Counted from the stretch's first letter, positions 4,782 through 21,850 are shown. The stretch is 64,000 bases of DNA from Candidatus Culexarchaeum nevadense (GCA_025060975.1 JANZKA010000001.1:28607-92606), one strand, 5' to 3'. Notes: a model not told the origin generated them from the sequence alone. A program made the numbers and translations.

Positions 4782-6835
4782 GTAGTCTAGAATTATTAGA
4801 AGCTGACATAAGAGAGAGATTCGCCGATTTCCTAAAATCATTCAAAAACAGTGCTGGAGAATATTACTACAAAAACATGTTAAGCCAAATGGTTGTAACT
4901 GGACAAAAACACCTAGTAATAAATTTTGAAGACCTACTGGAGTACGACCCGCAACTCGCAGAACAATTAATAGAAAAACCAACCAAAGTTATTGAAGCAG
5001 CCTCAGCAGCCATAAGAGATGTAATGATGAGTAGCATAAACATAACCTATGCAAGGAAGGTAAAAAGGTTTATAGCAAGGTTCAAAAAACTACCAGAAGT
5101 AATCCCTATAAGGAAAATCAGATCAGAACACATTGGAAAACTAATAATGATAGAAGGCATACTCACAAGAGTATCATCAATAAAACAACAGATAGTGAAA
5201 GCAGCATATAGATGTGAGAGATGCTCAGAAATAACCTATGTAGAAGCGGTCAGTTTAAATGAAAAGATAAGCCCACCGGAAAAATGCCAACATTGTGGAG
5301 GTAGAGTGTTCAAGTTAATCCCAGAAGAATCTGAATTCATAGATTGGCAAAGACTTACAATACAAGAAAGACCAGAAGAACTACCACCAGCCCAACTCCC
5401 AAGATCAATAGAAGCCATTGCAAGAGAAGATCTAGTGGATGTAGCTAAACCCGGTGATAGAATAATAGTCGTGGGAATATTGAAAGCAGTAAGGGAACAC
5501 ACTGGGATGGGAACAACATTTAGACCTGAAATAGAAGTAAACAATATAGAGTTATCAGAAAAGGGGCTGGAGGAAATAGAAATAACACCAGAAGATGAAG
5601 AGAAGATTAAGACTTTGGCAAAAGATCCAATGATACATGAGAAAATCATACAATCAATAGCACCATCAATATATGGTTATAGAGAAGTGAAGGAAGGAAT
5701 AGCATACCTACTATTTGGAGGAGTGCAAAAAACCTTACCAGATGGTGTAAGAATAAGAGGAGACATAAACATACTACTAGTCGGAGATCCTGGAACTGCA
5801 AAAAGCCAACTACTACAATACGTTGCCAGAATAGCCCCAAGAGGGATATATACTTCTGGAAAAGGGTCCACAGCCGCCGGATTAACAGCGGCAGTAGTAA
5901 AGGATAGAAGCACTGGTGATTGGTACCTTGAAGCAGGAGCACTCGTACTAGCAGATGGGGGAATCGCATGTGTAGATGAAATAGATAAAATGAGGAATGA
6001 AGATAGAGTAGCTATGCATGAAGTGATGGAACAACAAACAGTGAGCATAGCAAAAGCAGGTATAGTTGCAACATTAAATGCAAGAACATCAATATTAGCC
6101 TCAGCAAACCCAACACTTGGAAGATTCGTGGAACAAAAATCAATAGTTGAAAACGTTAATCTTCCAATCACAATACTTTCAAGATTTGACCTAATATTCC
6201 CATTGAAAGATGAGCCAGATGAAGAAAGAGATACGAAAATGAGTGACCACATACTTAGATTACATCAAACAAGGGGGTACGTTTCACCACCACCAATAGA
6301 ACCTGAACTCCTAAGGAAGTATATAGCATACATGAGGAAAAACGTTAAACCAAGATTATCTGATGAAGCTATGGAAAAAATAAAAGAGTATTATGTTGAA
6401 ATGAGGAGGCATGGGAAGAGTGGAGGGAGCATCCCAATAACCCCAAGACAACTGGAAGCATTAGTGAGAATGACAGAAGCAAGAGCAAAAATGGCCTTAA
6501 GAGATGTAGCCACAAAAGATGATGCAGAAGCAGCAATAAGACTAATGAACTACGTATTAGAGAAAACAGCATACGACATTGAAACCGAGAAAATCGATAT
6601 AGATGTATTATTAACCGGGAAAACAAGGTCGCAAAGAGAGAAAATGAACATCATAATGGATTACATAAGAAGTAAGGTTAAGGAGATAGGTGGACCAATA
6701 AAAAGGGAATTCGCCGCAGAAGAAATAGAGAAGATACATGGAATAGAGAAAAACACGGTTCTCGAGATCATAGAGAAGTTGTTAAAGGAAGGAATACTAT
6801 TCGAAGCTAGACCAGGATATGTGATGCCAACATAA
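4778..6835 (+). CDS. mcm: Minichromosome maintenance helicase MCM
   Basis: Zn finger C-x2-C...C-x2-C (CERC...CQHCGG). Walker A ILLVGDPGTAKSQ, Walker B DEIDKM, arginine finger SRFDL. 685 aa. Confidence 0.95.
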   Translation: MSSLELLEADIRERFADFLKSFKNSAGEYYYKNMLSQMVVTGQKHLVINFEDLLEYDPQLAEQLIEKPTKVIEAASAAIRDVMMSSINITYARKVKRFIARFKKLPEVIPIRKIRSEHIGKLIMIEGILTRVSSIKQQIVKAAYRCERCSEITYVEAVSLNEKISPPEKCQHCGGRVFKLIPEESEFIDWQRLTIQERPEELPPAQLPRSIEAIAREDLVDVAKPGDRIIVVGILKAVREHTGMGTTFRPEIEVNNIELSEKGLEEIEITPEDEEKIKTLAKDPMIHEKIIQSIAPSIYGYREVKEGIAYLLFGGVQKTLPDGVRIRGDINILLVGDPGTAKSQLLQYVARIAPRGIYTSGKGSTAAGLTAAVVKDRSTGDWYLEAGALVLADGGIACVDEIDKMRNEDRVAMHEVMEQQTVSIAKAGIVATLNARTSILASANPTLGRFVEQKSIVENVNLPITILSRFDLIFPLKDEPDEERDTKMSDHILRLHQTRGYVSPPPIEPELLRKYIAYMRKNVKPRLSDEAMEKIKEYYVEMRRHGKSGGSIPITPRQLEALVRMTEARAKMALRDVATKDDAEAAIRLMNYVLEKTAYDIETEKIDIDVLLTGKTRSQREKMNIIMDYIRSKVKEIGGPIKREFAAEEIEKIHGIEKNTVLEIIEKLLKEGILFEARPGYVMPT

Positions 6836-6841
6836 TGGGGG

Positions 6842-8998
6842 ATGAAGAAGATTAAGATAAGAGAGCTATCAATACCTAAAATAATAAAGGATATATTGGA
6901 AAACAATGGGATAGATGAACTTTACCCACCACAAGAGCAAGCTGTGAGGAATGGGTTACTTGAGGGAAGAAACATAGTAATAGCTATACCTACAGCTGCA
7001 GGGAAGACACTTGCAGCAGAACTAGCAATAACAAAAAGATTACTTGAAGAAGGAGGAAAAGCAATATATTTAACACCATTAAAAGCTCTTGCCTCGGAAA
7101 AGTACGAGGAATTTAAAAAATATGAATATGCTGGATTAAAAGTTGCCATAAGCACTGGAGACTACGACAATCCAGAACCACAACTCAAAAACTACAATAT
7201 AATAGTCATGACAAACGAAAAAGCAGACAGCATTCTAAGAAATAAACCTCAATGGATGAGTGAAGTCAAAGTGGTAGTAGCAGACGAAATACACCTAATA
7301 AATGATAATGACAGAGGACCAACCCTAGAAGTAGTCTTAGCAAAACTCTTATCAACAAATTCACAATTGCAAGTTATAGGTTTAAGTGCAACAATAATGA
7401 ATGCAGAAGAGATAGCTGAATGGTTAAATGCTAGACTCGTAAAAAGTCATTGGAGACCAGTACCATTAAGAAAAGGAATCTACGTGAATGGAAGAATAAT
7501 ATACGATGATGAAAACATAGTAGAGGTTACAAAAGAGAAAATAGATCCATGCCAAGCATTAACGAGACAAACCCTAGAAGATGGAGGCCAAGTATTAATC
7601 TTCACAAACACAAGAAACGATTCAAGAGAAACAGCCTTCAAACTAATACCACTAACATCAAAATACTTAAAAACAGACGACAAAAAGGAACTCTTAAACG
7701 TAGCCAACGAAATACTATCATCAGAAGAAAGCACAAGAATAAGTGAAGAATTAGCCACATGCATTAAAAATGGAATCGCATTTCACCATGCAGGATTATC
7801 AGCAACCCATAGAAATATAGTTGAAAAGGCATTTAAGGAATCCAAAATAAAGGTTATATGTGCAACCCCCACCTTAGCCGCAGGAGTAAATCTCCCAGCA
7901 AGAAGAGTGATAGTAAAGAGTTATTATAGATATGATAGTTCAACTGGATATCAAATGATACCAACATTCGAATACCATCAAATGGCTGGGAGAGCTGGAA
8001 GACCAAAATATGATGAATATGGAGACGCAATACTAATAGCCAAAAACCTCCAAGAACAAGAGTTCTTAATGGAAAACTATGTAAAGGCACCACCAGAAAA
8101 GATATGGTCTAGACTAGCATCAGAATCAGCATTAAGATCACATACACTTGCAATAATAACCACAGAATTTGCAAAGAATGAAGAGGAAGTCATGGAATTT
8201 ATAAGACGAACGTTCTATTACAAACAATATGGTGAAGAAAGACAAATAAGAAATGTACTGAGAAGAATAATGAAGTTCCTAGTGGAAAATGAGATGATTA
8301 AAGTTATTGATGAAAAAGTATACCCAACGAAGCTTGGAATAAGAGTATCACAACTATATATAGATCCACTATCAGCCATACGAATCATAAATGGACTAAA
8401 GGGAAAGAATAGTGCAAGTGAACTCGCATATATACACTTAATATGTATGACCCCAGACATGCAGAGACTACACCTTACTAGGAAAGATAGAAAGATATTA
8501 ATGCCGAAATTATTAGAACTTGAAGGAAAACTACTCGTAAATGTAAAAGAATTCACAGACGAATTCGAACAGCTAACAATGCTACAAGCACTTAAAACTG
8601 CCATGATGCTGAATGAATGGATAAATGAGGAAAAGGAAGATGTAATCATAGAAAAATATGATGTAGGACCTGGAGACATATACTCGATAGCACTTACAGC
8701 ACAATGGCTAATGTACTCAGCCACAGAAATAAGCAAATTAATGGGATTCATAAATCACTTACAAAAACTAACTGAGCTAACTAGCAGATTAGAATATGGA
8801 TGTAAACCAGAACTATTGGAACTAATAAGTTTAAAGGGTATAGGAAGAGTTAGAGCTAGACTACTTTATAGAGCAGGGTATAAAACCATAGAAGATCTAA
8901 AAAAGGCGCGTATAGAAGACTTGAGGAAAATACCATTATTCGGAGAAGAAACCATAAGGAAAATAAAGGAACAACTGGAAGAGGAAAGGCTACATTGA
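6842..8998 (+). CDS. hel308: Ski2-like DNA helicase Hel308/Hjm
   Basis: Motif I AIPTAAGKTLAAELA, DEIH box (ADEIH), motif VI HQMAGRAGR. About 720 aa with a C-terminal HhH-like tail. Starts 6 nt after the mcm stop. Confidence 0.85.
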   Translation: MKKIKIRELSIPKIIKDILENNGIDELYPPQEQAVRNGLLEGRNIVIAIPTAAGKTLAAELAITKRLLEEGGKAIYLTPLKALASEKYEEFKKYEYAGLKVAISTGDYDNPEPQLKNYNIIVMTNEKADSILRNKPQWMSEVKVVVADEIHLINDNDRGPTLEVVLAKLLSTNSQLQVIGLSATIMNAEEIAEWLNARLVKSHWRPVPLRKGIYVNGRIIYDDENIVEVTKEKIDPCQALTRQTLEDGGQVLIFTNTRNDSRETAFKLIPLTSKYLKTDDKKELLNVANEILSSEESTRISEELATCIKNGIAFHHAGLSATHRNIVEKAFKESKIKVICATPTLAAGVNLPARRVIVKSYYRYDSSTGYQMIPTFEYHQMAGRAGRPKYDEYGDAILIAKNLQEQEFLMENYVKAPPEKIWSRLASESALRSHTLAIITTEFAKNEEEVMEFIRRTFYYKQYGEERQIRNVLRRIMKFLVENEMIKVIDEKVYPTKLGIRVSQLYIDPLSAIRIINGLKGKNSASELAYIHLICMTPDMQRLHLTRKDRKILMPKLLELEGKLLVNVKEFTDEFEQLTMLQALKTAMMLNEWINEEKEDVIIEKYDVGPGDIYSIALTAQWLMYSATEISKLMGFINHLQKLTELTSRLEYGCKPELLELISLKGIGRVRARLLYRAGYKTIEDLKKARIEDLRKIPLFGEETIRKIKEQLEEERLH

Positions 8999-9008: not shown

Positions 9009-9467
9009 TCAAAATAATTGCAAACAAACAATAATCTTTCCATCAACATTTGAAATATAAACAAATAGGAATTCACGTGACAAATTAACGTTAGAATTTA
9101 CATAACACACATCAATCAAGTATGGAAGACTCAACTTAAACTCACCTTGATCACAACATAATATCAAAGAATTCTGAAATATGGAAAGTCTATATCCAAT
9201 AAATCTAGTTGGAACAGATAATTTAATGCAAATACTGGAATTCAAACCTAAAATTCTGCAAATTTCAACTCCGTAAACTATGGACTCCTTAATACTATAC
9301 ATGAAAGAATGATAGACTCTATCATCATTAAGAATATTGAAATAAAAACCACTCATGGACATTAAAAGTAACAATATAGAAAGGATTAAGCCAAAATTGA
9401 GTATAGAGTTGGAAATGACGTTTCTCATATTTATCCACCAATCACATTGACCGATATTATAATACAA
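9009..9467 (-). CDS. Small membrane/pilin-like protein (last gene of the filament operon)
   Basis: N-terminal hydrophobic helix (ISNSILNFGLILSILLLLMS), beta-rich remainder. A likely internal start at MRNVIS would remove the overlap with the upstream gene. Confidence 0.3.
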   Translation of the reverse strand: MYYNIGQCDWWINMRNVISNSILNFGLILSILLLLMSMSGFYFNILNDDRVYHSFMYSIKESIVYGVEICRILGLNSSICIKLSVPTRFIGYRLSIFQNSLILCCDQGEFKLSLPYLIDVCYVNSNVNLSREFLFVYISNVDGKIIVCLQLF

Positions 9468-10105
9468 TTAAGTATCAATGGATTGACTCTACTTGAATTA
9501 AAAGACCAAATAAATGAGCATGTTGGACTATACAATTGCATATATGAGATTTTGGGGTTAGTAGGGCTATAGAACCTCTTTACAATATTAATGTATGGAA
9601 AGAAAGAATATTTCCCACATGATATCTTCAATGAACTATTAATATTGAACAATACAGCCCCAATCAATACTGAGTTACCATTAAAAACTATTCTCGGATG
9701 AATACTAAGGATCAACATACTCCCATTTGCTATTATCGAATAAGAGAAGTAAGTCCTATTACCTTCTTCAATTATTACATTCCCGTATGGATATAAGGAG
9801 CTGCGATAAACATACCTCAAGTTAATGGAGAAAGAAGACAACAGAGTTTCGTTATCAAAATTTATAATCTGGAAGCCGTTAATGTAAAACTCCAATACAC
9901 CATACTTTAAAGAAAAGGTGTGTACCACCATTTTACCAGATTCAATACCATCAACAAGCTTATAGAAAAATGATTTTACATCATTAATTTCAGCGAGCAT
10001 TAACACGTAGGTATTGTAGGAAGTATAAAACTGTAAGCAAACCGAACCAACTAATAGTATTAGCCCAACCAGAATAACTGATGAAGGTATCTCCGTAGAT
10101 GTCAT
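9431..10105 (-). CDS. Pilin-like/membrane-anchored protein (no canonical class III motif)
   Basis: N-terminal hydrophobic segment SSVILVGLILLVGSV. 224 aa. Start is 3 nt after the stop of the preceding gene. N-x-S/T sequons. Confidence 0.3.
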   Translation of the reverse strand: MTSTEIPSSVILVGLILLVGSVCLQFYTSYNTYVLMLAEINDVKSFFYKLVDGIESGKMVVHTFSLKYGVLEFYINGFQIINFDNETLLSSFSINLRYVYRSSLYPYGNVIIEEGNRTYFSYSIIANGSMLILSIHPRIVFNGNSVLIGAVLFNINSSLKISCGKYSFFPYINIVKRFYSPTNPKISYMQLYSPTCSFIWSFNSSRVNPLILNCIIISVNVIGG

Positions 10106-10776
10106 ATGGGCATCACATCCACAGAAATAACCTCAAAAACCAATATAACAGGACCACTTGATGTAATAATCGTTGAATAATGATCATTACTAGAAATTAG
10201 TGATATTTTAAGCTGACCAGCACACTCAAACGTGTAAATAGACTTAAATGAATCACTAACTCTCAAAACAAAGTTTCCACTGATGATACCAGAACTTTTC
10301 AAAACCATTAATCTCAAATAGATTCTGGAACCTAAATTATACACTGAAAGTGCTGGTATTAGATGTATATGATCACCATGCCCATATATTGAAAAACAAG
10401 TACCATTAAGTTGAATGGGTTGATCATAGTATATATTCGGAGAAGAAGCATAAACCTGTATGCTTAAAATTGACGATTTAAAATTCCCTAAGCATATATC
10501 GTTAACGATGATTGTTATATTGCAACAATCATCCAATTTAATAATGTAATGTGGATTGAATATCATAATTGAATCATCGATGAAATATAGTTTATCAGCC
10601 TCTAACCTCACATATCTCAAGAAGTCCACTGCATTATCAGACCTTAAACCACATTCCAAATTCCTCAAGTACATCATTCCATATTGAAGGCAAATGAAAG
10701 ATAGTGAGATAAAAACCATGAACATAATCACATTAGATAAAATATTGGAAATACCTCTAGAATTTAAATTGCCCAA
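10102..10776 (-). CDS. Class III signal peptide (prepilin-like) protein
   Basis: N-terminus MGNLNSRG|ISNILSNVIMFMVFISL: a short charged leader, then RG, then a hydrophobic helix, as in archaeal PibD substrates. 224 aa. Confidence 0.45.
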   Translation of the reverse strand: MGNLNSRGISNILSNVIMFMVFISLSFICLQYGMMYLRNLECGLRSDNAVDFLRYVRLEADKLYFIDDSIMIFNPHYIIKLDDCCNITIIVNDICLGNFKSSILSIQVYASSPNIYYDQPIQLNGTCFSIYGHGDHIHLIPALSVYNLGSRIYLRLMVLKSSGIISGNFVLRVSDSFKSIYTFECAGQLKISLISSNDHYSTIITSSGPVILVFEVISVDVMPI

Positions 10777-11422
10777 TGCATTTCACCCCTCTCCAATCAA
10801 TTACACTAAATATAAAAGTATGCACATTCAACGGGATTATAAAACGAATAACGTAATGCCCATTCATTAAACTCTTAGAATCTGGATAAAAAGTGAAAGT
10901 ACTCCCATTATAGATGTATGAAACCATGAATGTTGGCGGTTTAAGTAGAGCTTCAGAATCACCGAAAACCTCAACTACCATCTCAACATCATTAAATGTT
11001 GGAACATACGAATTTGAAGTTGTTATATTAACTATTTTAAAGCCTAAACAACAATTATAACTAAACGTATACCTACACCTATATTTGAAATCATATACTT
11101 GTAACGTGACTGAGGCTCCAACATACCCATCTTTTAAAATAACAGTATATGATGACAATTCAACTATTAATGGGTAAACATTCATAATGTCATGTAAATT
11201 TAGATTTAAACGATCAGTGAATTCTCCACCATTAATGCGATGCACCAATGCATCGCATATCAACCTTTTAAATATCAAATTTAAAGCTTGAATATAGCTA
11301 GATGGAACATCAATGTCTATTCTGTAATATGGGGTTAGATAAATTAATTGATAAATTAAGGAGATGTATAATACTGCAAACAGTATTAATATTTGTCCTC
11401 TACACCCAAACTTGCAGAACAA
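10757..11422 (-). CDS. Class III signal peptide (prepilin-like) protein
   Basis: N-terminus MFCKFGCRG|QILILFAVLYISLIYQLIYL. 221 aa. Confidence 0.4.
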   Translation of the reverse strand: MFCKFGCRGQILILFAVLYISLIYQLIYLTPYYRIDIDVPSSYIQALNLIFKRLICDALVHRINGGEFTDRLNLNLHDIMNVYPLIVELSSYTVILKDGYVGASVTLQVYDFKYRCRYTFSYNCCLGFKIVNITTSNSYVPTFNDVEMVVEVFGDSEALLKPPTFMVSYIYNGSTFTFYPDSKSLMNGHYVIRFIIPLNVHTFIFSVIDWRGVKCIGQFKF

Positions 11423-11804
11423 TTATTCTAGTCACCCCCCTCAACTTCAAGACAAATGGTGCACTAACCATGGAATTAAATATCTTGAAATTGGAAATGT
11501 ACGAGAATAATAAGTTATGATTCTCATCATATACTAGTAAGTTGAAGCTCAATTCTTGTGGTATGAGAAGTTTAATGTAATTCACTAATAAATCCCAATC
11601 CCCATTATAGGCGATTACACTTAAATCCCCATTAGAATCAAGTGTGTATAAAATGTTAAATGCTATGGAATGAAGATGGGAATTATCTACGGTATAATCA
11701 TATACTATCATGGGGATTGTTATGGTGGAATACGCTATTATCATCATTGCGATGAGAACTTCAATTATTCTTGAAAAACCACGATAAGCCATATCCACCA
11801 CCAA
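11400..11804 (-). CDS. Type IV pilin-like protein (class III signal peptide)
   Basis: N-terminus MVVDMAYRG|FSRIIEVLIAMMIIAYSTITIPMIVY. 134 aa, a typical pilin size. Confidence 0.5.
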   Translation of the reverse strand: MVVDMAYRGFSRIIEVLIAMMIIAYSTITIPMIVYDYTVDNSHLHSIAFNILYTLDSNGDLSVIAYNGDWDLLVNYIKLLIPQELSFNLLVYDENHNLLFSYISNFKIFNSMVSAPFVLKLRGVTRIIVLQVWV

Positions 11805-11813: not shown

Positions 11814-13121
11814 TCATAAATTGTTAAGTCCCGGTAAACCAGAATTACACATGCAAGTACCACTATTCTTAACCCTAATTTTACATAGCAATGAATGGTA
11901 TGCATCAACTTTGAGAAAACTATAAGTAGAATCACCTTCATTTAGAAAGCCTATTGAAACATTCAATTCTGGAATAAAGGCAACGTAAAATACTCCATTA
12001 AATGTGTAGATCATAACGTAAGGAGGACTTACATTTGGCATCGTATTCACATTAATACTCTTATCAAACCAGAGCAACCAAACTTTATCAACATTAAAAC
12101 ATGGTATATATGAGCTATGATGAGACGATGACACAATATTGTTTAACTTCAAAATGAAAGGATGAGTCCATCCACCAAGATAGATATACACATTCCCACT
12201 TGAACTTAGTTTCAGAAAGAATCTCACATTACTTCCATGAAATTCCTTCAGTAGGGGTATGTGGAAGGTAAAACTCTTAACACAACTGGAATTGATTGTG
12301 AAGAAGAAATCGGCTAAAACCATAGAATCACTGCAATTAGATCCACAAATTCCAAAAACCATATGGAGACTTCCAAAACCACTGGCAAAAAATGAGAGCT
12401 CTAAGGAGTCATTGGAAATGCTGATTGAATTTTTAAAAACTCTACTGTAAAACGAGGTTCCATTATCATTAAGTAATATGACTGAAGAGGCTCCAAAAAT
12501 ACTATCAACAATATAGTATCCACCACCAAGATTGGACAAATAGAATTGCGTTGGTCGTGCAATCATGTAACTCATTTGGAAATCTCCATATAAACCGATA
12601 CCAAACAATTGCCCATGCCTAACAAATACAACCACCAATTGAGGCTTGTACTTCAATGAAATACTTCCAAAACCATTATCCAAGTTTATATAGTAATAAT
12701 CGGTTAAGGTTCCATTACTAAATATATAAACGAAGGCTTCTCTACCACAAGATTTCATATTAACGATATCGAGGGATCTTATAATCACAGACTCACCAGT
12801 AAAGTACACTTTAACATCTAGGGATGGTGATATTTGGATGGAGAATACGTGATCTTCCATGTTAATGGTCTTCTTCAAATACTCATAGTCTAAGTAATAG
12901 CCGAAAACTTGTGAGTAAATGGGGGATAAAGCTTGAAGAGTGAATGGATCAATCCTCCCCTCAGGAGCTATTGAGTATAGTAGGCGATTGACTATTACAT
13001 CATTAGAGTATGTTGTAAAATGAAAGTATCTTTGTGCAGTGGAACTCAATATGCTTGCACTAGATGATAATAGTAAGAAGATCATGAATCCAGCGAAAAC
13101 ATATTCTACAACTTCTTCCAT
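11814..13121 (-). CDS. Membrane-anchored secreted protein of the filament locus
   Basis: N-terminal hydrophobic segment FAGFMIFLLLSSSASILS. 435 aa, beta-rich, multiple N-x-S/T sequons. No recognisable catalytic motif. Confidence 0.35.
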   Translation of the reverse strand: MEEVVEYVFAGFMIFLLLSSSASILSSTAQRYFHFTTYSNDVIVNRLLYSIAPEGRIDPFTLQALSPIYSQVFGYYLDYEYLKKTINMEDHVFSIQISPSLDVKVYFTGESVIIRSLDIVNMKSCGREAFVYIFSNGTLTDYYYINLDNGFGSISLKYKPQLVVVFVRHGQLFGIGLYGDFQMSYMIARPTQFYLSNLGGGYYIVDSIFGASSVILLNDNGTSFYSRVFKNSISISNDSLELSFFASGFGSLHMVFGICGSNCSDSMVLADFFFTINSSCVKSFTFHIPLLKEFHGSNVRFFLKLSSSGNVYIYLGGWTHPFILKLNNIVSSSHHSSYIPCFNVDKVWLLWFDKSINVNTMPNVSPPYVMIYTFNGVFYVAFIPELNVSIGFLNEGDSTYSFLKVDAYHSLLCKIRVKNSGTCMCNSGLPGLNNL

Positions 13122-16100
13122 GAATAATCACCATCAATCCACAATCCCTCAAAAACTTCATATCCAAATGCGTAAACAGTAAGCACTATTTTATGAATTC
13201 TCCTTGGAAGAGAGAATGTATAGAATTTTATGGATCCATGAGTTAATGTTATGGTGATGGATGATGAGTAGAAGAGTTCATCAAATTCGTCGTAAAACAT
13301 CACATTCAGTGTACAATTGAAATCCATGAAGCTCGATTTTGAAGTTAAAGTGAAATTAGCAAATCTCCCCTCAACATTAACATATAACAGCACACCAATG
13401 TTTTCATTCCAGCATAAATCGCATAGTTCATCTAGTCTGGAAACCCACGTATTACTAATGTCTCTGCAAAGTAACTTGATTGTAAAGTTTTTGTAAAAGG
13501 GTATTCTGAAAGTCATAGAAGCAACTCCATCTTCATCAGTTTTATAATTAAGTTTGGTGATAACAGTATCATTACAATAAACCATTAACAGCAGCTCTAG
13601 ATGTGCTGGATCACCATTGGAATAATAGAATTTAAAGTTGATATTGAAAGATAAATCTTTTACCAAAAATCTTAGGATATCACATTGTATACGTTTAAAT
13701 GGAATAACAACATATGATAAACTTGAATTCGTAGATCTGATAGTGAATGGGGAGTTAACATAGTATACGAAGAACTTAAGTGAATCATTAAAGTTAATGG
13801 GGGGAGCAATAAACTTTGCGTTTCCAAAATCATCAATTGGAGAACTCCTAAAATATCCATATGTGGAGTTCAAGACAAGTTGAAGAGCCCCCCCTCTAAA
13901 CCTTAAACTCTCATTGTTGAGACTCCAAGTTAAATGGAATAATATTTCATTGCAACTATAATCATTATTTACAATATAATACACTTTTAATCCGTCAACA
14001 TAAAATCTATTTCTACCTACAATACGTCCAGAATCATCTGAAAGTAGGATTTCATAGGATCCTAAGGGGCAATTTATACCATTTAAATAAACTATGAGTT
14101 TACATAACCCATCTTCATCAGTTGATACTGGTATGAGTGAAACGTTAAAATCGCCGAAAACGGCATTTGGAAGAATCAACGTGAGATTCCTCAGAGGCTG
14201 ATATTTAATTATAATCCCCATGGCTTCATATGGTAGAAATCTATACTCTGAATACCAATAGCCATACATCCAGTTGACATAATATAATTCGATGGAAGCA
14301 AGTCGCCTAATTTCAATGGAAAATGTGCACGAATCATTATGTGAACTGGAGAATGCATGTAATTTAAAGTTGAATATTCCAGTTAAATTTGATAATGGAA
14401 TTACACGTAACTCAACGATTTCCACAGGATTTGAATCTGATATGTAAACTGGGTTTCTAGAAAAATTATATCTGAAGAAATCCGAGTAGCTTGCATTACA
14501 TAAAACTTCGAGAGAAACATAACCGCTGAACCCATTAACGGAAGTTAAACTAACATAAAACAGTGCATCTTCACCTTCAAGAATAGATATAAATGTTGGA
14601 TATATGGAAACGTTGAAGTATCGCCCTTGCTTAACTTCCAATTTAAATGGATTACTATAAACTATCAACCCATTATGATCAACACCCTTTACTATCAGAT
14701 CATACACTCCCTCAATAGAAGAAGGAGAAGCATAAATTTCGAGGACTACACTTTTTTCATAGGAATCGATGAACAATGGATTAATGGAAAAATTATATAA
14801 ACAGTTTGGAGGATTACCCTCAACACTTAATGTGATTACACCACTATAACCATTAATTGGAGTTAAAGTTACATTGTAGAGTACACGAGACCCTTTAAAG
14901 ACGCTATTAAAAGTTGGGTTAACGGTAATTGAATATGAGGGAGCCACATAACTTTCAACGTTCAGTAATATCTTTCTACTCTGACCATCGGAACCTACGG
15001 CCAAGATTTCAATGAAGCAATCCCCAATATCATAAGATGTGAAGTCTATGTGAAACTGGAATGGAGGAATACCTCTAGTCTCACCCACCACGTTGTAACT
15101 AAGCCAACTTGGGACAGATCCTATTGTAACCTGCACAGGGAGTTCATAGCCATATAGATCGCCAACATATACGTCAATCCCCCTTGCAGAACCCAATGGT
15201 ATTCGAATACAATTATAGGAGGAACTTAAGGAGAAGGATGGTATTGTTAAATTAAAATCCTTTGAAGAAGGAAGATAGCTACTATCCCCTTCAAAAACAA
15301 TTCTTAAAATTCTCTTACCAAATTGTATATCACTTGGGATAACATATAAAAACGTAAAGGAGCCATCAGAATCGGTATGATTCGATGATATATACATGGA
15401 ATCCATATACAAATCGATTTTCGCATTCGAAATACCGTTACCGCGACTATTTATCAAGCGTCCACTTAAATATATTAGGTCTCCAATATACCCTTTAGAT
15501 GCACTTATAGAGCCAACAATGTATGAGTTCTCAAAATAGCCTATAGACAATGTTATTCGTAAACCATAACTCCCACTATAGAAGTCTGCAAAGGAATATG
15601 CGTAATCCTCTAAAGCTCCAGTAGCTATACTTCTAACAACCATTATAACTGAGAAGTCAAGCCTATCACCACTAAAAACATTTAAATCCAGATCTTGATA
15701 AACAGAAACATATTGATCACTAAAAACATATTGATCTTCACCTGAATAATAGAGGGTAAGAGTTTTTGAAGCCAAAGTAACTCTATAATTCATGAAGTCC
15801 ACATAAACCTCAATGCTAGCTTCAGCTGAAAATGTATTAGGGAGACATATGGATTTAACGTATAGTTTACCCATAAGTGTATATTTAATCGATAACTTCT
15901 TGATAACACCACTAAATGGTGAAATAAGGTAACCTTTAAAGGTGAGGGTTAAATCAGCTTCATTCAATAAGGATCCTATATTCTTCGTGGCAGAACATAT
16001 AGCTTTAAGTAAACCTCGATTCTTATCATAACTATAAGTGAAACTTCCAGTACCACAAGTATAGTAGAAAGGTTGAAATTCATTGAATGGTGGAGCAAGG

Positions 16101-16234
16101 GGGTAATATAGGATGCAATTAGAGTTTGGGAGCAAAAGTAACAATAATAGTGAAATCATTAATGGTAGGAGTAGCATCCTTCTTCTTACCATAACCTTGC
16201 ACCACCATAAATTCCAAGGATGCAAATGTAGCAA
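13106..16234 (-). CDS. Large secreted multi-domain surface protein (carboxypeptidase-regulatory-like / Ig-like repeats), putative adhesin
   Basis: 1042 aa. Signal-like segment RRRMLLLPLMISLLLLLLLP; the probable true start is the internal Met near 16192. Motifs GRLINSRGNGISNAKIDLY...TDSDGSFTF and KTDEDGVASMTF resemble prealbumin-like CarboxypepD_reg folds. Internally repeated ~80-aa units (NGYSGVITLSVEGNPP...FSINP / NGFSGYVSLEVL...FSRNP). About 20 N-x-S/T sequons. Confidence 0.5.
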   Translation of the reverse strand: MLHLHPWNLWWCKVMVRRRMLLLPLMISLLLLLLLPNSNCILYYPLAPPFNEFQPFYYTCGTGSFTYSYDKNRGLLKAICSATKNIGSLLNEADLTLTFKGYLISPFSGVIKKLSIKYTLMGKLYVKSICLPNTFSAEASIEVYVDFMNYRVTLASKTLTLYYSGEDQYVFSDQYVSVYQDLDLNVFSGDRLDFSVIMVVRSIATGALEDYAYSFADFYSGSYGLRITLSIGYFENSYIVGSISASKGYIGDLIYLSGRLINSRGNGISNAKIDLYMDSMYISSNHTDSDGSFTFLYVIPSDIQFGKRILRIVFEGDSSYLPSSKDFNLTIPSFSLSSSYNCIRIPLGSARGIDVYVGDLYGYELPVQVTIGSVPSWLSYNVVGETRGIPPFQFHIDFTSYDIGDCFIEILAVGSDGQSRKILLNVESYVAPSYSITVNPTFNSVFKGSRVLYNVTLTPINGYSGVITLSVEGNPPNCLYNFSINPLFIDSYEKSVVLEIYASPSSIEGVYDLIVKGVDHNGLIVYSNPFKLEVKQGRYFNVSIYPTFISILEGEDALFYVSLTSVNGFSGYVSLEVLCNASYSDFFRYNFSRNPVYISDSNPVEIVELRVIPLSNLTGIFNFKLHAFSSSHNDSCTFSIEIRRLASIELYYVNWMYGYWYSEYRFLPYEAMGIIIKYQPLRNLTLILPNAVFGDFNVSLIPVSTDEDGLCKLIVYLNGINCPLGSYEILLSDDSGRIVGRNRFYVDGLKVYYIVNNDYSCNEILFHLTWSLNNESLRFRGGALQLVLNSTYGYFRSSPIDDFGNAKFIAPPINFNDSLKFFVYYVNSPFTIRSTNSSLSYVVIPFKRIQCDILRFLVKDLSFNINFKFYYSNGDPAHLELLLMVYCNDTVITKLNYKTDEDGVASMTFRIPFYKNFTIKLLCRDISNTWVSRLDELCDLCWNENIGVLLYVNVEGRFANFTLTSKSSFMDFNCTLNVMFYDEFDELFYSSSITITLTHGSIKFYTFSLPRRIHKIVLTVYAFGYEVFEGLWIDGDYSWKKL

Positions 16235-17874
16235 GATACCAATGCATGCTTAAAACCTGCAAAGATAGTTCCACCAGAAATTTTCCCTACAAGTATGCCT
16301 ATGAAGAATGAAGTTAAAATTATCATAGAATTTATGGTTGAATTTAACTCAATAATCACACTTTTATCAACATTGAAGAAGATAATCTGACTCGGAATAG
16401 AATATCCAAATTCAAAAAAGCTAAGGAACCCAATTAACTGGTAAGAGACAAATATGAGCATGAGTGAAGAGAAGTATCCCACCAAAATATAGAGTTTCAA
16501 TTCATTTTCAACTCTACGCTTAAATTCATTGTACTCCCAACAGAACTTTGAAAGATGTGAGAAAATTTCAGATCTTCCACCACCAGTAGATACAGCTTCC
16601 CCAAAAAGCCAAAATATCCTCTTGGCAAACCATGAATTAACCCTAGAAATAATATCATTGAATATATCTGATATAGACTTCATGGATGACGTCAAGGAAA
16701 GGTTTATACTACGAATAATATCATCTAAAGCTTTACCATAAGATCTGCTAGAGGCAAGTATTAAAGCATTCTCGACACTTAAACCAACCTTAATATAATC
16801 GGATATATCCCTAATGAATTTTGAAAGACCAGAATCTATGACTCTACATTTAATAACATTGTATTCGTGAAAAATACTTAAAGGAGCCAATAAAACCGTA
16901 GAAGAAATTGTGAAAAGAAGTGGAAAGCTCACACCTAAATTCAAGAGTATAAGTAACGTTATGAAGAAAGAAGGGATCGAGAAGAGCAATACCCGCTTAT
17001 AATTACTAAACCTAAATGGAAATTTCAATTGACTGTAATCGATTATAATGAAGATGGAAAATGCTATTAGTGGAGTGAAAATAAAAGCATAAAGTTTTAG
17101 GAATAACAATGCATTTAATGGATTCATAATCATAAATATGCCAATTAAGCCGAGTGGGAGAAATAGGAATAGTGTTACTATGAGATCGCCAAATACGTTC
17201 ACATCACTAGCGAAATTCTTAAGCTTATTTGAAAACCGCTCACCCAATTTAAGCGTGTAATCCATTAAAGAAGAAGATGGATAACCACCACTCTCAACAG
17301 ACCTAATATATGAATCAAGATAATCCCTGAAATCTTTACATGGATGATTGTAAGCTAAGAACTTAATTGATTGCATGGGATCTTTACTAAAAAACTTATA
17401 ATCAGTAAAGAAGACTTCACTTTCAAACTTAAACCATGGAAAAACGTTTTGTGAAGATAATCTTTCAAACCCTCTAAATAGAGGCACATGAGATAAACTC
17501 AACATACTAAAATAAGTTGATATGAAAGGAAGTTCGGATTCAACACCACTAACACGTAAGGATATTCTAACCCTAGGATAAAAATGAAAAACTAAAAATA
17601 CGAATAATGCACATAAAGGTGGCAATACAAGGAAGAGAAATGAAGAAAACAAAATCAGAAGAAGAATAGATGCAATTGTGGATGCTGGTAAAACTATGAG
17701 TAAAAGGTAGAATAGGAAAATCGAACAGTACCCTTGAGGACTTATCTTTAAACCAGAACGAACTATAATTTCACTTAAATTAAGCTTATGAGAAATAGTA
17801 TTTGCAAAATTACCAAAAAGTCTATATGCTATAGAAATTGGAAAAACTTGAACACTCTTACCTTTCCAAAGCAA
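16186..17874 (-). CDS. FlaJ/TadC/PilC-type polytopic membrane platform protein of a type IV filament system
   Basis: 562 aa. Two hydrophobic blocks, each followed by a cytoplasmic helical domain (a duplicated T2SS-F-like organisation). Immediately downstream of, and overlapping, the secretion ATPase gene. Confidence 0.7.
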   Translation of the reverse strand: MLWKGKSVQVFPISIAYRLFGNFANTISHKLNLSEIIVRSGLKISPQGYCSIFLFYLLLIVLPASTIASILLLILFSSFLFLVLPPLCALFVFLVFHFYPRVRISLRVSGVESELPFISTYFSMLSLSHVPLFRGFERLSSQNVFPWFKFESEVFFTDYKFFSKDPMQSIKFLAYNHPCKDFRDYLDSYIRSVESGGYPSSSLMDYTLKLGERFSNKLKNFASDVNVFGDLIVTLFLFLPLGLIGIFMIMNPLNALLFLKLYAFIFTPLIAFSIFIIIDYSQLKFPFRFSNYKRVLLFSIPSFFITLLILLNLGVSFPLLFTISSTVLLAPLSIFHEYNVIKCRVIDSGLSKFIRDISDYIKVGLSVENALILASSRSYGKALDDIIRSINLSLTSSMKSISDIFNDIISRVNSWFAKRIFWLFGEAVSTGGGRSEIFSHLSKFCWEYNEFKRRVENELKLYILVGYFSSLMLIFVSYQLIGFLSFFEFGYSIPSQIIFFNVDKSVIIELNSTINSMIILTSFFIGILVGKISGGTIFAGFKHALVSCYICILGIYGGARLW

Positions 17875-19441
17875 TCCTAATCACCTCAGACCCCCTTGAA
17901 TAATAGAAAAGTTTAAGATGATCGATGAAATCATCATATTCACGTATACCATGAGCATGTAGATCTTCCAGAAACTGCAACCTAATTTTCAACTCATGTG
18001 AAATATCATTTATCGAAACCCCCTTCTCCTCAGCGATCTGTCTTAGAAGGAAACTTGAAGATAATAGTGAATCAACAGTGGACGGCGCAAAGATATCTCG
18101 GGATGGAACCCACTTGAAAACCTCAATATAATCGTCGGCTGATTTTATCTCATAAATACCAATAACCCTCCTCTTAACACTTCTTGCACCCTCAATCTTC
18201 TTCAATACGATGGCACAATTCATTAGTGGAATATATATTGGGGATACATTCATGGGCGGCGAAGATAAGCGCTTAATAGCGGAAATTATAGAATCAGCAT
18301 GCATCGTACACATACATCCATGCCCTGTAGCTGCAGCTTGAAATAACACATAAGCTTCTTCGCCACGAATTTCTCCAACCACAATATAGTCAGGTCTCTT
18401 ACGCATAGCTACCTTAACTAAATCGAATAGAGTAATCTCAAACTGCTTATCATCCATAAAGTATGCATGCCTAGCTACAAGTGGCTCCCAACCTTTAACT
18501 GGAATTTTAAGCTCAGGAACATCTTCAATGGAATCAACAGACCAATTTGGTTTAAACAATGCACTTAAAGCGGAAAGTAAAGTTGTCTTACCACTCGCAG
18601 TACCTCCAAGTACAAATATGTTCTTTCTATTTTCAATCAACAACCACAAATAGCAAGTCATGAGAGGACTTAAAGTTGAAAAATCATACGTTAAATGCAT
18701 AACGGTATAAGGTTTCTCTCTAAACTTCCTAATACAAATATTAGTGGATTTAGCACTAACTTCTCTCCCATAGCATATTGAAACTCTATGCTTATCAGGT
18801 AATATGGCATCAACTATTGGAAATGCTATTGAGACATGTTTACCACACATATGTGCAAGCTTAGAAGCCAGCGAATTTAATTCATATTCGTTTAAAACAA
18901 TGTTCGTTGTAAGCCAATCCAGATGCCCAAACCTCCTATGCCAAACCATAAATGGGATATTGGGACCTACACACTTAATATCCTCAATTTCCGAATCTTG
19001 AATTAACGGTTCAATATAACCATAACCCAAATCTCTAGCTATATAATATGCAACACGATTCAAACTCAATTCATAAAGATTTTTAAACCCATAATTCTCA
19101 GCCACCCTAAATATTTGCTCATGTATATAATTGAATAAATTAGTACCAGCCTCCAAAGCGGGAGGTATCTTTAATTCAAATCGCAATATCTTAGATAATT
19201 CCCTGTAAACTTTTAATTCCAGATCCATAAGCTCAGGTTCAAATACAATATATAATCCTTCACCATCATCATCTGCAATAACCACATTAACTTGATCATT
19301 ACAAACTTTATATGATGCAAGTATAGTTGCATTTATGGGAACTTTTGATCTAAAAATCTTAAAATCCATAGGATTCTCCAAATACGAAGACCCACGTTTG
19401 AAAAAACGTTTTAAGAACATTATTCGCGCATCCCCTCTCAT
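17858..19441 (-). CDS. Type II/IV secretion system ATPase (FlaI/VirB11/TadA family)
   Basis: Walker A VLGGTASGKTTLLSAL, Walker B/Asp box DYIVVGEIRGEEA, His box TGHGCMCTMHA. 527 aa with an N-terminal domain, as in FlaI. Confidence 0.85.
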   Translation of the reverse strand: MRGDARIMFLKRFFKRGSSYLENPMDFKIFRSKVPINATILASYKVCNDQVNVVIADDDGEGLYIVFEPELMDLELKVYRELSKILRFELKIPPALEAGTNLFNYIHEQIFRVAENYGFKNLYELSLNRVAYYIARDLGYGYIEPLIQDSEIEDIKCVGPNIPFMVWHRRFGHLDWLTTNIVLNEYELNSLASKLAHMCGKHVSIAFPIVDAILPDKHRVSICYGREVSAKSTNICIRKFREKPYTVMHLTYDFSTLSPLMTCYLWLLIENRKNIFVLGGTASGKTTLLSALSALFKPNWSVDSIEDVPELKIPVKGWEPLVARHAYFMDDKQFEITLFDLVKVAMRKRPDYIVVGEIRGEEAYVLFQAAATGHGCMCTMHADSIISAIKRLSSPPMNVSPIYIPLMNCAIVLKKIEGARSVKRRVIGIYEIKSADDYIEVFKWVPSRDIFAPSTVDSLLSSSFLLRQIAEEKGVSINDISHELKIRLQFLEDLHAHGIREYDDFIDHLKLFYYSRGSEVIRIALER

Positions 19442-19552: not shown

Positions 19553-20554
19553 ATGTTCAAATCCAGTACAAAAGAATTATCAGAAAAGATCGATTGGATG
19601 ATGCAAATACTCAATGAGATAAATGTGAAAATAAATGATAACTCTAGCAGGATAATGAAACTTGAAGCAGAATTAAGAGGTATTCAATTAGATGAAATTG
19701 GTGAAAACATAAAAGCCATTAATGAAGGACTCTACAAAGTCAAAGAAGCAATGAATGAAGCTGGAAAAATGAGAGAGATAATATCTGCATTTAAAAACCT
19801 AAATGTGAAAGGAGAGTTTAAGGAGAATATAGATGAATTAAAGAAGAGCATTGAAGAAGTCATGCAGCAATTGCTACAAATAAAAAGCGAAGTATACTCA
19901 AACATAAAAGCATTAACAGACAAAATAAACAATATACAAACAATACATCAGGAAATCATGAAAAACATTATGAGTATAAAAGATTTAGAAGTAAACGCAT
20001 TAAAAAACATATCCACAATAACCATCATGCAAAAAGAAATAGGAGAAATGGAGGAAAATGTAAGGAAACTATTGGAGCACTACAAGGAAATTATAGATAA
20101 AACAGCATCAACAAAAATTGAATTAAACAAATTAATGAATGATATAGAAAGAAGAGATGAAGAAAGCAAAAGGAAATTGGAAGAAGTAACTATATACGAG
20201 GAAAAAATTAAGAAAAAAGAAGAAGAACTAATTGAAAGAGAGAAACTACTCACACAACTAATAAACGCATTAATTGAAAAAATAAAGGAATATGAAGAGA
20301 TAATGAAACTAACAAACTCAAGAATAACATACTTAAAAATTTTAGAAGAGAAAGGAAGAGAAATTGAAGGGAAAATTAAAGAATTAAAAGAGGAGAAAGA
20401 AAGATTGGAGAAAGAGGTCAATATTTTAATAAGAAGAAGAGATAACCTCGAAGAAGAGATATGCAAATTAAATGATATGAAAACTTGCATGGAGAAGAAT
20501 CTTAAAAGCATAATGGTGACAATGAAAGTTGAGCAATCCAGAACTAACATATAA
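19553..20554 (+). CDS. Coiled-coil protein (E/K-rich, no TM), divergent from the filament operon
   Basis: 333 aa, heptad-like E/K/L/I-rich sequence throughout. GGTGA Shine-Dalgarno-like motif 5 nt upstream of the ATG. Confidence 0.4.
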   Translation: MFKSSTKELSEKIDWMMQILNEINVKINDNSSRIMKLEAELRGIQLDEIGENIKAINEGLYKVKEAMNEAGKMREIISAFKNLNVKGEFKENIDELKKSIEEVMQQLLQIKSEVYSNIKALTDKINNIQTIHQEIMKNIMSIKDLEVNALKNISTITIMQKEIGEMEENVRKLLEHYKEIIDKTASTKIELNKLMNDIERRDEESKRKLEEVTIYEEKIKKKEEELIEREKLLTQLINALIEKIKEYEEIMKLTNSRITYLKILEEKGREIEGKIKELKEEKERLEKEVNILIRRRDNLEEEICKLNDMKTCMEKNLKSIMVTMKVEQSRTNI

Positions 20555-21254
20555 AATTATAAATCACTTGAAGGAAGAGTTATCAAGGGAAATTACGAGG
20601 GGAAGGTTAACATTCACTCCTAAAAGGATAAGCGTAAATATAGGTGAGAGAGGGAATATAAGGAAAATAAACGCTATTCTAAAGATGCTAGAAAGAGAGG
20701 GAGTAATAAAGTTCGATAAAAGAATGAAACGTTACTACATAGACGACGAAAATGCAAAGAAAATTGAAGATTACCTTATGAAAATTGAAGGAGCACTACT
20801 ATTAGAATACCATAAACCCTTAAGCAGCATAGAACCACCCATAAATGTATATAGAATAATTAAGGGGGAAAAGCAAAAGATAGCACAAGCAAAAAGGAAG
20901 AGTATAATGAAACCAATATACTATGTAAATTCCCCTGAGAAATACACGATAATATTCAGGACATATAAGATGCCAGGATTCACAATAAATAAAGGTGATG
21001 AAAAAATTTTCGAAGCATATAAACTAGGGTTCATGAAACCAATAAAAGCAATGTACAATGGAAAAGAAATGCTGATAAGAAGGAAATGGGGTAGAGAGAT
21101 CATAATAATAAGGGAAAATGAGAAAGAAATCGCTAAAATGAGGGGGTATGGAATTGAAAAAGCCATATTTACATATGAAGAAGCGTTAAGTGAAATTAGT
21201 ATACCAATATCAGTAGCATTATTTGCAATAAAACAATTTGATGTAATACTTTAA
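20529..21254 (+). CDS. Hypothetical protein with an N-terminal winged-helix-like segment
   Basis: 241 aa, basic. N-terminal RISVNIGERGNIRKINAILKMLEREGVIKF resembles a wHTH. Overlaps the upstream coiled-coil gene by 26 nt. Confidence 0.35.
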   Translation: MSNPELTYKIINHLKEELSREITRGRLTFTPKRISVNIGERGNIRKINAILKMLEREGVIKFDKRMKRYYIDDENAKKIEDYLMKIEGALLLEYHKPLSSIEPPINVYRIIKGEKQKIAQAKRKSIMKPIYYVNSPEKYTIIFRTYKMPGFTINKGDEKIFEAYKLGFMKPIKAMYNGKEMLIRRKWGREIIIIRENEKEIAKMRGYGIEKAIFTYEEALSEISIPISVALFAIKQFDVIL

Positions 21255-21334: not shown

Positions 21335-21850
21335 ATGAGTAATAGTAAAGGGATAAGTGCAATAATGGTCTCGATAATACTATTAGCAGTATCCATTGGA
21401 ATGGCAGTAGCCTACGCATCAACCATGATGGGATGGTTTGGAAGCGCTATGAACATAGTGAAAATAGATGCATCAGAATCTAAAATAATTCTAAACCCAT
21501 CCACAAATCAAACAAGGATACAAATAGTGCTAAGAAACATGGGAACTACAACAATAAAAGTGAGTAGCATCTCGATAGACACAGAAAAGGGGAAAGCAAT
21601 TATAAACTTTACAAAGAGTGATGTGAAAATATATATGCAAGATCAATCTCCATTTGATGGAGACGTATATGGATCTTCAAAGGATGTAACTATCTCTGAT
21701 AAGTACTTATTAATACCACAAGGTTGCACAGCAACTATATACTTTGAAATAATCTTACAAGAGCATGTATGGAAACTTGGAAACATATATAGGGCATTGG
21801 TATTCTATGATGGAGGAATGTTTGACTTTAAGATAAGCGTAGTGTATTAG
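21335..21850 (+). CDS. Archaeal type IV pilin-like protein (class III signal peptide)
   Basis: N-terminus MSNSKG|ISAIMVSIILLAVSIGMAVAYA, a canonical KG|IS PibD/FlaK-type site, followed by a beta-rich 140-aa domain with N-x-S/T sequons. GAGGGG 6 nt upstream of the ATG. Confidence 0.6.
   Translation: MSNSKGISAIMVSIILLAVSIGMAVAYASTMMGWFGSAMNIVKIDASESKIILNPSTNQTRIQIVLRNMGTTTIKVSSISIDTEKGKAIINFTKSDVKIYMQDQSPFDGDVYGSSKDVTISDKYLLIPQGCTATIYFEIILQEHVWKLGNIYRALVFYDGGMFDFKISVVY

Follow-up and report, generated by a model that had tools for sequence, protein, structure and literature searches.

What are the five consecutive open reading frames (ORF1 to ORF5) that occupy positions 9009-11804, on the minus strand, of a 64-kb stretch of DNA (the window, i.e., the whole stretch analysed) from the hot-spring archaeon Candidatus Culexarchaeum nevadense: five minor pilins, or a set in which some members are processed like pilins and others are not? 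A preliminary description had called all five minor pilin-like, and had suggested that PibD-processed subunits could be mixed with unprocessed ones, or that the genes could be divergent paralogues; to call all five minor pilins exceeds the evidence for ORF4 and ORF5. It is very likely that the ORFs belong to an accessory pilin-like module of a type IV filament with both processed and unprocessed members. We also consider it probable that ORF1-5 make up the distal accessory module in a type IV filament operon that is lineage-specific and belongs to the Culexarchaeales/Methanomethylicia (recently recognised Thermoproteota), a tip or priming arrangement included; this specific arrangement, taken by itself, is proposed tentatively. 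The five genes are as follows (coordinates are those of the window; a slash within a motif marks the cleavage position).

11400..11792, minus strand: ORF1, 130 amino acids (aa), class-III-type N-terminus MAYRG/FSRIIE.
10757..11422, minus strand: ORF2, 221 aa, TTG start, canonical class III signal GCRG/QILIL with Gln at +1.
10102..10776, minus strand: ORF3, 224 aa, TTG start, class III signal NSRG/ISNIL.
9431..10105, minus strand: ORF4, 224 aa, leaderless N-terminal helix (MTSTEIPSSVILV; MTSTEIPSSVILVGLILLVG), paralogue of ORF3.
9009..9428, minus strand: ORF5, 139 aa, MRNVISNSIL, a short basic N-terminus followed by a helix (MRNVISNSILNFGLIL); probable uncleaved signal anchor.

The N-termini quoted earlier for the five ORFs match the sequence of 9009-11804 exactly. 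Four of the five had been described as about 220 aa long; this holds for three (221, 224 and 224 aa), ORF1 and ORF5 being 130 and 139 aa, and size is in any case a weak argument, because pilin-like proteins of 250-550 aa are on record in archaeal type IV pilus (T4P) loci (PMC4858521).

Related loci comprised one genome locus (L002, "Methanomethylicia archaeon"), four metagenome loci (L003-L006; these and L002 form, with the window, the six close loci) and eight further contigs (numbered within L007-L015) reached by an exhaustive HMMER search with ORF4. Homologues, on whose presence in related genomes the preliminary description had made its reading depend, were found in 11 other loci, in which ORF1-5 are conserved in order and length. 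Gene limits were refined by conserved start codons and GGTGA-type Shine-Dalgarno motifs 5-12 nucleotides (nt) upstream. Every start of ORF1-5 is preceded by such a conserved ribosome-binding motif (before the ATG it reads GGTGG in ORF1 and GGTGGA in ORF5), TTG is the start codon of ORF2 and ORF3 in five or all six of the close loci (at the start of ORF3, L002 has ATG and the five others TTG), and an in-frame stop nine codons above the ATG of ORF4 makes a longer N-terminus of this protein impossible. The ratio of nonsynonymous to synonymous substitution rates (dN/dS, Nei-Gojobori) of ORF1-5 is 0.10-0.38 at dS 0.45-1.1 (ORF1, 0.22-0.27; ORF4, 0.10-0.11 against L004/L005, which is a constraint as strong as that on the operon's ATPase, with 0.22 between L004 and L005; ORF5, 0.10-0.12 against L004/L005). 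The five ORFs are real genes under purifying selection. That some of them are chance open frames in AT-rich DNA might be suggested by the lack of any Pfam, NCBIfam or PDB match and by a public annotation that shortens or omits some of them, but the probability is practically negligible, this idea being refuted by the conserved order and lengths, the dN/dS range, the conserved starts and ribosome-binding motifs, and the confident fold predicted for ORF2.

The N-terminal rules were compared over 10-12 orthologues per family, for ORF1-5 and for a 435-aa protein encoded next to ORF1 in the same direction. In type IV prepilins, G, A or S at position -1 is stated to be required throughout (reviews; PMC4371748), and in archaeal prepilins a charged residue at -2 is described as critical for the peptidases (PMC4371748). 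The pattern of ORF2 is [KR]G/Q in 10/10 orthologues (Gly at -1, K/R at -2 and Gln at +1 in all 10). ORF3 shows G/[ILV]S, with G(-1) and S(+2) in 12/12, and ORF1 shows M-x(3-4)-G/[FYI][ST][RK]xxE, in which G(-1), [RK](+3), E(+6) and A(+10) are invariant among 10 orthologues. The charged residue at -2 (K/R) is present in ORF1, ORF2 and ORF3 of the window itself, so that three ORFs with [KR]G before a hydrophobic helix and two without it, as described earlier, are indeed seen there. ORF4 begins in 12/12 orthologues with Met and 2-4 polar residues, directly followed by the helix; a leader is never present, and no Gly/Ala/Ser-plus-charge motif occurs in any of the 12. The Glu at position 5 of ORF4 was considered as a pilin-like Glu and is not relied on here (it is retained only in the 7 closer orthologues). 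In ORF5, R or K stands ahead of the helix in 11/12 orthologues, and the would-be -1 residue is N (8 orthologues), A, T, F or V. ORF4 and ORF5 thus lack the class III combination of G/A/S at -1 with K/R at -2, and the earlier statement that two ORFs have no cleavage motif holds overall, with the qualification that ORF5 does have a basic residue (R2), which is followed by Asn instead of Gly, Ala or Ser. As its -1 residue is variable, ORF5 is probably not cleaved and is most simply regarded as a putative uncleaved signal anchor. The N-terminus of the 435-aa protein reads M[ED]x[VT][VI]E[YH].F in 10/10 orthologues, without a leader. Judged by the -1/-2 rule, the signals of ORF2 and ORF3 are canonical and that of ORF1 is class-III-like, its -2 position being relaxed; ORF4 and the 435-aa protein are leaderless. 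The proposed mix of PibD-processed and unprocessed subunits would fit the invariant Gly(-1) of ORF1-3, the leaderless ORF4 (12/12) and the unconserved site of ORF5.

A rule-based six-frame scan of the window gave class-III-like N-termini for 4 among 993 start/ORF combinations, namely ORF2, ORF3, the pilin at 21335 (see below) and one internal false positive in a transporter; ORF1 fell below the hydrophobicity cut-off of the scan solely because of R+3 and E+6. In three lineages (L002, L007, L008) the leader of ORF1 has no basic residue at all (MSNYG, MTSYSG, MNNFG).

All five proteins might instead be substrates of the prepilin peptidase, ORF4 and ORF5 being cut at non-canonical sites (e.g., R-N/V in ORF5). 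The length of the ORF5 leader varies (MRN as against MVDLRN or MVNLKN) before a conserved [RK]-x-[VI][ILV][ST] core, the orthologue in L011 reads R-A/VV, which is a canonical site, and PibD is broadly specific at +1 and +3 (PMC4371748). We consider this highly improbable, however, because 11/12 orthologues of ORF5 have N, F, T or V at -1, where G/A/S is required (PMC4371748), and because ORF4 offers nothing but its few polar residues before the helix.

The relationship among the five families was determined by profile-profile comparison. An all-against-all hhalign run with six-sequence alignments yielded no significantly similar family pair. With 12-sequence alignments ORF3 and ORF4 matched with a probability of 96.1% (E 3.7e-9, 209 columns), and in a control in which the columns of the globular parts were shuffled, with shallower alignments, 0/80 shuffles reached the observed score (z 3.0-3.6). 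No other pair was detectably related with alignments of 10-12 sequences, ORF1-ORF5 included, and no ORF matched the 171-aa pilin at 21335 beyond the N-terminal helix. The pairwise comparison of profile hidden Markov models that had been proposed for the five families thus singles out ORF3-ORF4; the families are not obviously similar when compared pair by pair (identity <=18%), as had been said, but this does not extend to the profile level, where ORF3 and ORF4 bear out the suggestion of divergent paralogues. In the alignment the +1 residue of ORF3 (I9) pairs with S3 of ORF4, which indicates that leader and cleavage site were lost in ORF4, the paralogue of a class III pilin-like protein; translation of ORF4 begins two residues ahead of the position equivalent to the mature N-terminus of ORF3. 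The step from ORF3 to ORF4 is a clean evolutionary case of a pilin-like gene losing its leader peptide, and the locus offers a natural test of whether only subunits with a cleaved leader can join a type IV filament.

A more far-reaching proposal, which we think clearly unlikely, is that ORF4, and perhaps the 435-aa protein as well, is a "born-mature" pilin-like subunit, whose leader and site would have been deleted after duplication of ORF3 and which would enter the filament without the prepilin peptidase. If true, ORF4 would represent a peptidase-independent route into a type IV filament or priming complex. The second point of this proposal is the invariant G/[FY][ST][RK]xxE of ORF1 (11778-11792 in the window), which resembles the bacterial consensus G/F[TS]LIE shifted by one residue, with Glu at +6; if true, it would imply, with the three lineages whose leaders are without a basic residue, a peptidase specificity nearer to the bacterial G/FxxxE than to the archaeal -2 K/R rule.

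Composition and conservation bear on the fate of the N-terminal segments. Charged residues amount to 10.7-16.7% in the six accessory proteins (ORF1-5 and the 435-aa protein) and in a 1,028-aa protein of the same operon, as against 19-39% in the cytoplasmic proteins of the window, and sequons per 100 aa to 0.9-2.2 in ORF2-5 as against 0-1.1 in cytoplasmic proteins; ORF1 has no sequon and no Cys. As far as residue composition can tell, these seven proteins are of extracellular type. The N-terminal helix is better conserved than the remaining protein in all six families (32-47% vs. 25-35%). A pilin-like helix that is retained should behave in this way and a disposable Sec signal should not, although the small hydrophobic alphabet inflates the measure. 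ORF4, ORF5 and the 435-aa protein could also be soluble secreted proteins, the Sec signals of which are removed by signal peptidase I, since all three have a single hydrophobic segment at the N-terminus and a composition of extracellular type, and towards the end of the segment the orthologues of ORF4 retain small residues (e.g., IGAVG/L, IGSIG/L) that might serve as a -3/-1 site. This is improbable in view of the absence, from ORF4 and the 435-aa protein, of the positively charged n-region typical of Sec signal peptides, and of the homology, column for column, of the ORF4 segment to the helix that ORF3 retains after cleavage; moreover, conservation is higher in the hydrophobic segments than in the mature parts, unlike what is usual for disposable signals (with the same inflation of the measure).

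The operon context was absent from the preliminary description, which named neither the ATPase, the platform protein, the 1,028-aa secreted protein nor the 435-aa protein. ORF1-5 are the distal end of nine co-oriented minus-strand genes, neighbours of which overlap or are spaced by 2-23 nt, in the order secretion ATPase, platform protein, 1,028-aa protein, 435-aa protein, ORF1, ORF2, ORF3, ORF4 and ORF5. The further genes of the locus are as follows.

17858..19441, minus strand: secretion ATPase, 527 aa, the operon's first gene (Pfam T2SSE, PF00437, E 6.6e-29).
16186..17874, minus strand: polytopic platform protein of the TadC/PilC type, 562 aa (Pfam T2SSF, PF00482, E 1.5e-12).
13106..16192, minus strand: secreted protein, 1,028 aa, with a signal peptide of the Sec type (MVRRRMLLLPLMISLLLLLLLPNSNC) and without a C-terminal anchor; candidate adhesin.
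11814..13121, minus strand: 435-aa single-pass protein with a leaderless acidic N-terminus (MEEVVEYVFAGFM), the sixth anchored accessory protein.
21335..21850, plus strand: canonical pilin, 171 aa, MSNSKG/ISAIMVSIILLAV (SKG/ISAIM); candidate major subunit in a transcription unit of its own.
19553..21254, plus strand: two conserved neighbours, divergent from the ATPase gene, encoding a 333-aa coiled-coil protein and a 241-aa protein.

Three features of an archaeal type IV filament locus are present: an ATPase of the T2SSE/FlaI superfamily, a platform protein of the T2SSF/TadC/FlaJ type and pilins (the 171-aa protein, ORF2 and ORF3). All NCBIfam scores of the machinery lie below the equivalog cut-offs: for the ATPase, FlaI 324.9 bits (cut-off 550; E 1e-97) and BasE 291 bits (cut-off 1000; E 2e-86); for the platform protein, with UpsF as top match, 149.5 bits (cut-off 400; E 1.3e-43); and for the 171-aa pilin, UpsA 37.9 bits (cut-off 130; E 1.7e-9). 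The platform protein has about 9 hydrophobic segments, and its gene overlaps that of the ATPase by 17 nt. The gene of the 1,028-aa protein, with its ATG at 16192, shares 7 nt with the end of the platform gene; this protein has 16.7% charged residues, 19 N-x-S/T sequons and only sub-threshold Ig-like matches in Pfam (CarboxypepD_reg, Big_1, MG4), and is kept at the same position of the operon in all loci long enough to show it. The 435-aa protein, the N-terminus of which leads directly into a hydrophobic helix, has 12.9% charged residues, 7 sequons and no match in Pfam or NCBIfam. The 171-aa pilin gene lies 2 kb upstream of the operon on the opposite strand, with an AT-rich TATA-like element and GAGGGG ahead of its ATG, and is found at the same position in L002-L006 (62-82% identity). 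An archaellum was rejected as the identity of the operon, which is without ArlH (KaiC-like), ArlX/CDE and archaellin. For the 1,028-aa protein two identities were rejected, that of a PySLP-like S-layer protein of Culexarchaeales (there is no C-terminal transmembrane helix or basic tail) and that of a lipoprotein with a lipobox in the signal peptide (NSNC; the Cys is absent in L002).

The full order of the operon is retained in L002-L006, L007, L008 and L014; L011 begins at the 435-aa gene, and the short contigs L009, L010, L012 and L013 carry distal genes in the same order. In every locus of sufficient length the products are the ATPase, the platform protein and proteins of ~1,030, 435-764, ~130, ~225, ~240, ~222 and ~141 aa. 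The identity of the ATPase to L002-L006 is 70-97%, and that of the accessory proteins to the window drops to about 20%. The accessory families had no match in Pfam or NCBIfam (FlaF/FlaG and archaellin families included; up to 38 diverse members were scanned), and no family profile matched a PDB sequence. Word-based searches returned matches only among proteins of Culexarchaeum, "Verstraetearchaeota" and "Methanomethylicia" metagenome-assembled genomes, and the ORF4 family comprises only 9 clusters at 50% identity, all of 218-224 aa, among 1.84 billion representative proteins. A scan of a genome collection with the platform protein as single query found one species, and the taxonomic breadth is therefore a minimum. 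Newly defined here are a conserved operon of nine genes for a type IV filament and six unannotated, lineage-restricted accessory families; the overall pattern was already expected from surveys of archaeal T4P loci and will not surprise the specialist.

The arrangement ATPase, platform, then several small pilin-like genes also resembles that of gspE-F-G-H-I-J-K and comGA-GG. A short pseudopilus (like that of a type II secretion system or the Sulfolobus bindosome), which exports or displays the 1,028-aa protein and in which ORF1-5 are pseudopilins, would agree with this layout, with the scores of ATPase and platform against the BasE and BasF models and with the position of the candidate major pilin outside the operon. 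The BasE and BasF scores, however, are far under the cut-offs, all six close loci keep a canonical UpsA-like pilin at a distance of 2 kb, and the 1,028-aa protein carries a Sec signal peptide itself and would meet no outer membrane on its way, which makes a pseudopilus quite improbable.

In the arrangement that we favour, ORF1-3 would be cut by the prepilin peptidase of the genome and act as minor, low-abundance pilin-like subunits, ORF4, translated already in "mature" form, would need no processing and take part as it is, and ORF5, with its basic N-terminus, and the 435-aa protein would stay anchored in the membrane. As a priming/tip or base complex, the set might start off a filament of the UpsA-like pilin (21335-21850) and link the anchorless, Ig-like 1,028-aa protein to it. 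By analogy, such an arrangement would parallel that of the bacterial minor pilins with PilY1, and that of ArlF/ArlG beside the archaellins.

Several observations weigh against this arrangement. Position -2 of ORF1 is basic in only 5/10 orthologues (R,R,R,R,K,Y,F,L,S,S) and that of ORF3 is not K/R in 3/12 (it is in 9/12), so that, with the critical charge missing in some orthologues, ORF1-3 may not all be processed; no candidate prepilin peptidase (PibD/FlaK, peptidase A24) was found among the ORFs of the window. The charges flanking the helix of the 435-aa protein (E2, E3 and E6 before it, R31 after it) predict an N-out/C-in orientation by the positive-inside rule, at odds with its extracellular-type composition, and a Pfam scan showed no sequence similarity of the 1,028-aa protein to PilY1. 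Structure prediction adds to this. The AlphaFold2 model of ORF2 (six sequences; mean predicted local distance difference test (pLDDT) 84.0, predicted TM-score (pTM) 0.75) has a helix at 7-32 (the membrane helix, of low confidence), helices at 40-63 and 68-82, and an all-beta domain at 85-220 that is an Ig-like beta-sandwich; the fold resembles pilins, archaellin and FlaF only at a generic level, CrdA and other Ig-like proteins outscore archaellin and FlaF against it, and a Foldseek search of the model against the PDB gave nothing at E <= 0.001. For ORF4, prediction with five close homologues gave an unusable model (pLDDT 28.9), from which no conclusion on the fold was drawn; its fold is taken from homology to ORF3 alone, itself without a model.

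The uncleaved members, or perhaps all six accessory proteins, might on the other hand remain around the platform as a base or stator complex in the pseudoperiplasm, where they would anchor the machine to the S-layer or open the S-layer, the 1,028-aa protein being an envelope component instead of a tip adhesin. The large S-layer predicted for Culexarchaeales makes this plausible, and ArlF/ArlG of the archaellum provide a precedent (PMC4425475). It is the main alternative to the favoured arrangement, but we think it rather unlikely: there is no sequence homology to the FlaF or FlaG families and the fold match is generic, the invariant Gly(-1) of ORF1-3 argues for release from the membrane like pilins, and the 1,028-aa protein is without a membrane anchor.

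The operon genes are all annotated as "hypothetical protein" in the GBS-70-058 record, and pili or archaella are not mentioned in the paper describing the Culexarchaeia. Aggregates are formed in cultures of a relative, Methanosuratincola (PMC12244365). Gene callers overlook the TTG starts of ORF2 and ORF3, and the shortened products lack the class III signal and the membrane helix, which hides these proteins from FlaFind-type screens. ORF2 was called as 162, 172, 205 or 208 aa (window 10102-11422; L001, L008) and ORF3 as 184 or 188 aa (the NCBI protein starts with MRNLECG; NCBI MCS7368147.1 is among the records concerned), and for ORF4 the GBS-70-058 record apparently lacks an NCBI protein (it is skipped in the numbering of accessions and locus tags, and no NCBI entry is given among its sources).

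Some further observations concern the neighbourhood. The orthologues of the 435-aa protein reach 741-764 aa in distant loci (L007 6002-8278, L011 414-2708, L014 6037-8262) and retain the N-terminal motif M[ED]xx[VI]E[YH].F, which points to a large gain of sequence, C-terminal or internal, in part of the lineage. The 171-aa pilin of the window has 80% aa identity (dN 0.118, dS 0.475) to that of L003, the closest relative, as against 92-97% identity and a dS of about 0.01-0.14 for the genes around it, which suggests allele replacement or recombination at 21335-21850. The 333-aa protein has only sub-threshold coiled-coil matches in Pfam and the 241-aa protein none; both genes are syntenic in L002-L006, and with 33-39% charged residues the products have a cytoplasmic-like composition and may be cytoplasmic partners or regulators of the filament machine. 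The rest of the window includes genes for RFC, GINS, MCM and Hel308. The pilus operon is convergent with this Hel308-MCM-GINS-RFC block (window 3124-8998) wherever the flank is present (L002, L008, L011, L014), and the adjacency persists in relatives with about 20% identity of the accessory proteins (in distant loci HSP20 and PAC2 genes intervene); it recalls the helicase/nuclease genes conserved beside the ups operon of Sulfolobales. A tRNA-Pro(GGG) lies at 24539-24617 and a tRNA-Gly(GCC) at 30557-30652; the latter spans 96 nt (ARAGORN) compared to 71 positions in the Rfam model, which suggests an intron.

How does this locus compare with known systems? FlaF is an archaellin-like protein without a class III signal (PMC4425475). 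Unlike ArlF/ArlG, the proteins described here show no sequence similarity to that family and are not encoded in an archaellum operon with ArlH, ArlI, ArlJ and archaellins; ORF4 has 224 aa, whereas the S. acidocaldarius FlaF construct ends at residue 164. In bacteria, a complex of PilY1 and minor pilins primes the assembly of type IVa pili and sits at the tip, and among the minor pilins PilX/GspK departs from the N-terminal consensus (PMC7541494). Like FimU-PilVWX with PilY1, and GspH-I-J-K of the type II secretion system, the operon groups four or five diverse pilin-like proteins with a non-pilin that is Sec-secreted and large (about 1,000 aa or more). This is an analogy only, as ORF1-5 have no detectable homology to the bacterial proteins and the 1,028-aa protein none to PilY1 (the C-terminal beta-propeller of PilY1/PilC was not found in it by Pfam, which gave just the sub-threshold Ig-like matches); furthermore, the bacterial minor pilins all keep a cleavable leader, unlike this module, and there is no secretin or outer membrane here.

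The Ups pili (UpsX-E-F-A-B) and the bindosome (BasEF/BasABC) of Sulfolobales share with the locus the best family matches (UpsF for the platform, UpsA for the pilin, with the ATPase matching BasE), and Ups also an Ig-rich accessory protein (UpsX) and DNA-helicase genes as neighbours; in contrast to the present operon, Ups comprises two pilins and is without an accessory tail of five or six genes, and all scores against Ups and Bas are far under the equivalog cut-offs. PibD-type enzymes tolerate a varied +1 residue, and an EppA-like second peptidase is not known from this lineage. In Methanococcus maripaludis, several minor pilins (EpdA-D) are essential for piliation and encoded with the machinery, and the substrates of EppA have Gln at +1 (PMC4371748). 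The ORF2 sites RG/QI and KG/QV are like those of the Epd minor pilins (KG/QV, KG/QI; PMC4371748), but unlike EppA substrates ORF2 has no Glu at +5 and no Pfam class-III/DUF361 match. With the Ups, Bas and archaellum cut-offs not reached and ORF2 without the traits of EppA substrates, the locus belongs to no named family, although it would work in the way of these systems.

In the T4P loci of clades 4A (Desulfurococcales) and 4G (Thermoproteales), untraceable, Cys-rich accessory proteins have been read as "minor pilin sets", and large signal-peptide proteins encoded there have been taken as adhesins (Makarova, Koonin & Albers 2016, PMC4858521). Pilins whose signal peptide is of class III (SPIII) mixed with pilin-like proteins without the SPIII motif have been described explicitly (Sivabalasarma & Albers 2026, 10.64898/2026.04.22.720090); the loss of a leader in one of two paralogues, as in ORF3-ORF4, is described in neither of these sources. 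The six accessory families differ from those of the clade-4 loci in having no Pfam/NCBIfam model and in being found only on Culexarchaeales/Methanomethylicia-type contigs, and the operon differs in being without a MinD-like ATPase or a second platform gene. It is like the clade-4 crenarchaeal loci in its layout (ATPase and platform, then several small, fast-evolving proteins that are secreted or anchored, and a large protein with a signal peptide), and like them, too, in its many Cys and in a major pilin of the PilA/UpsA type that is encoded apart.

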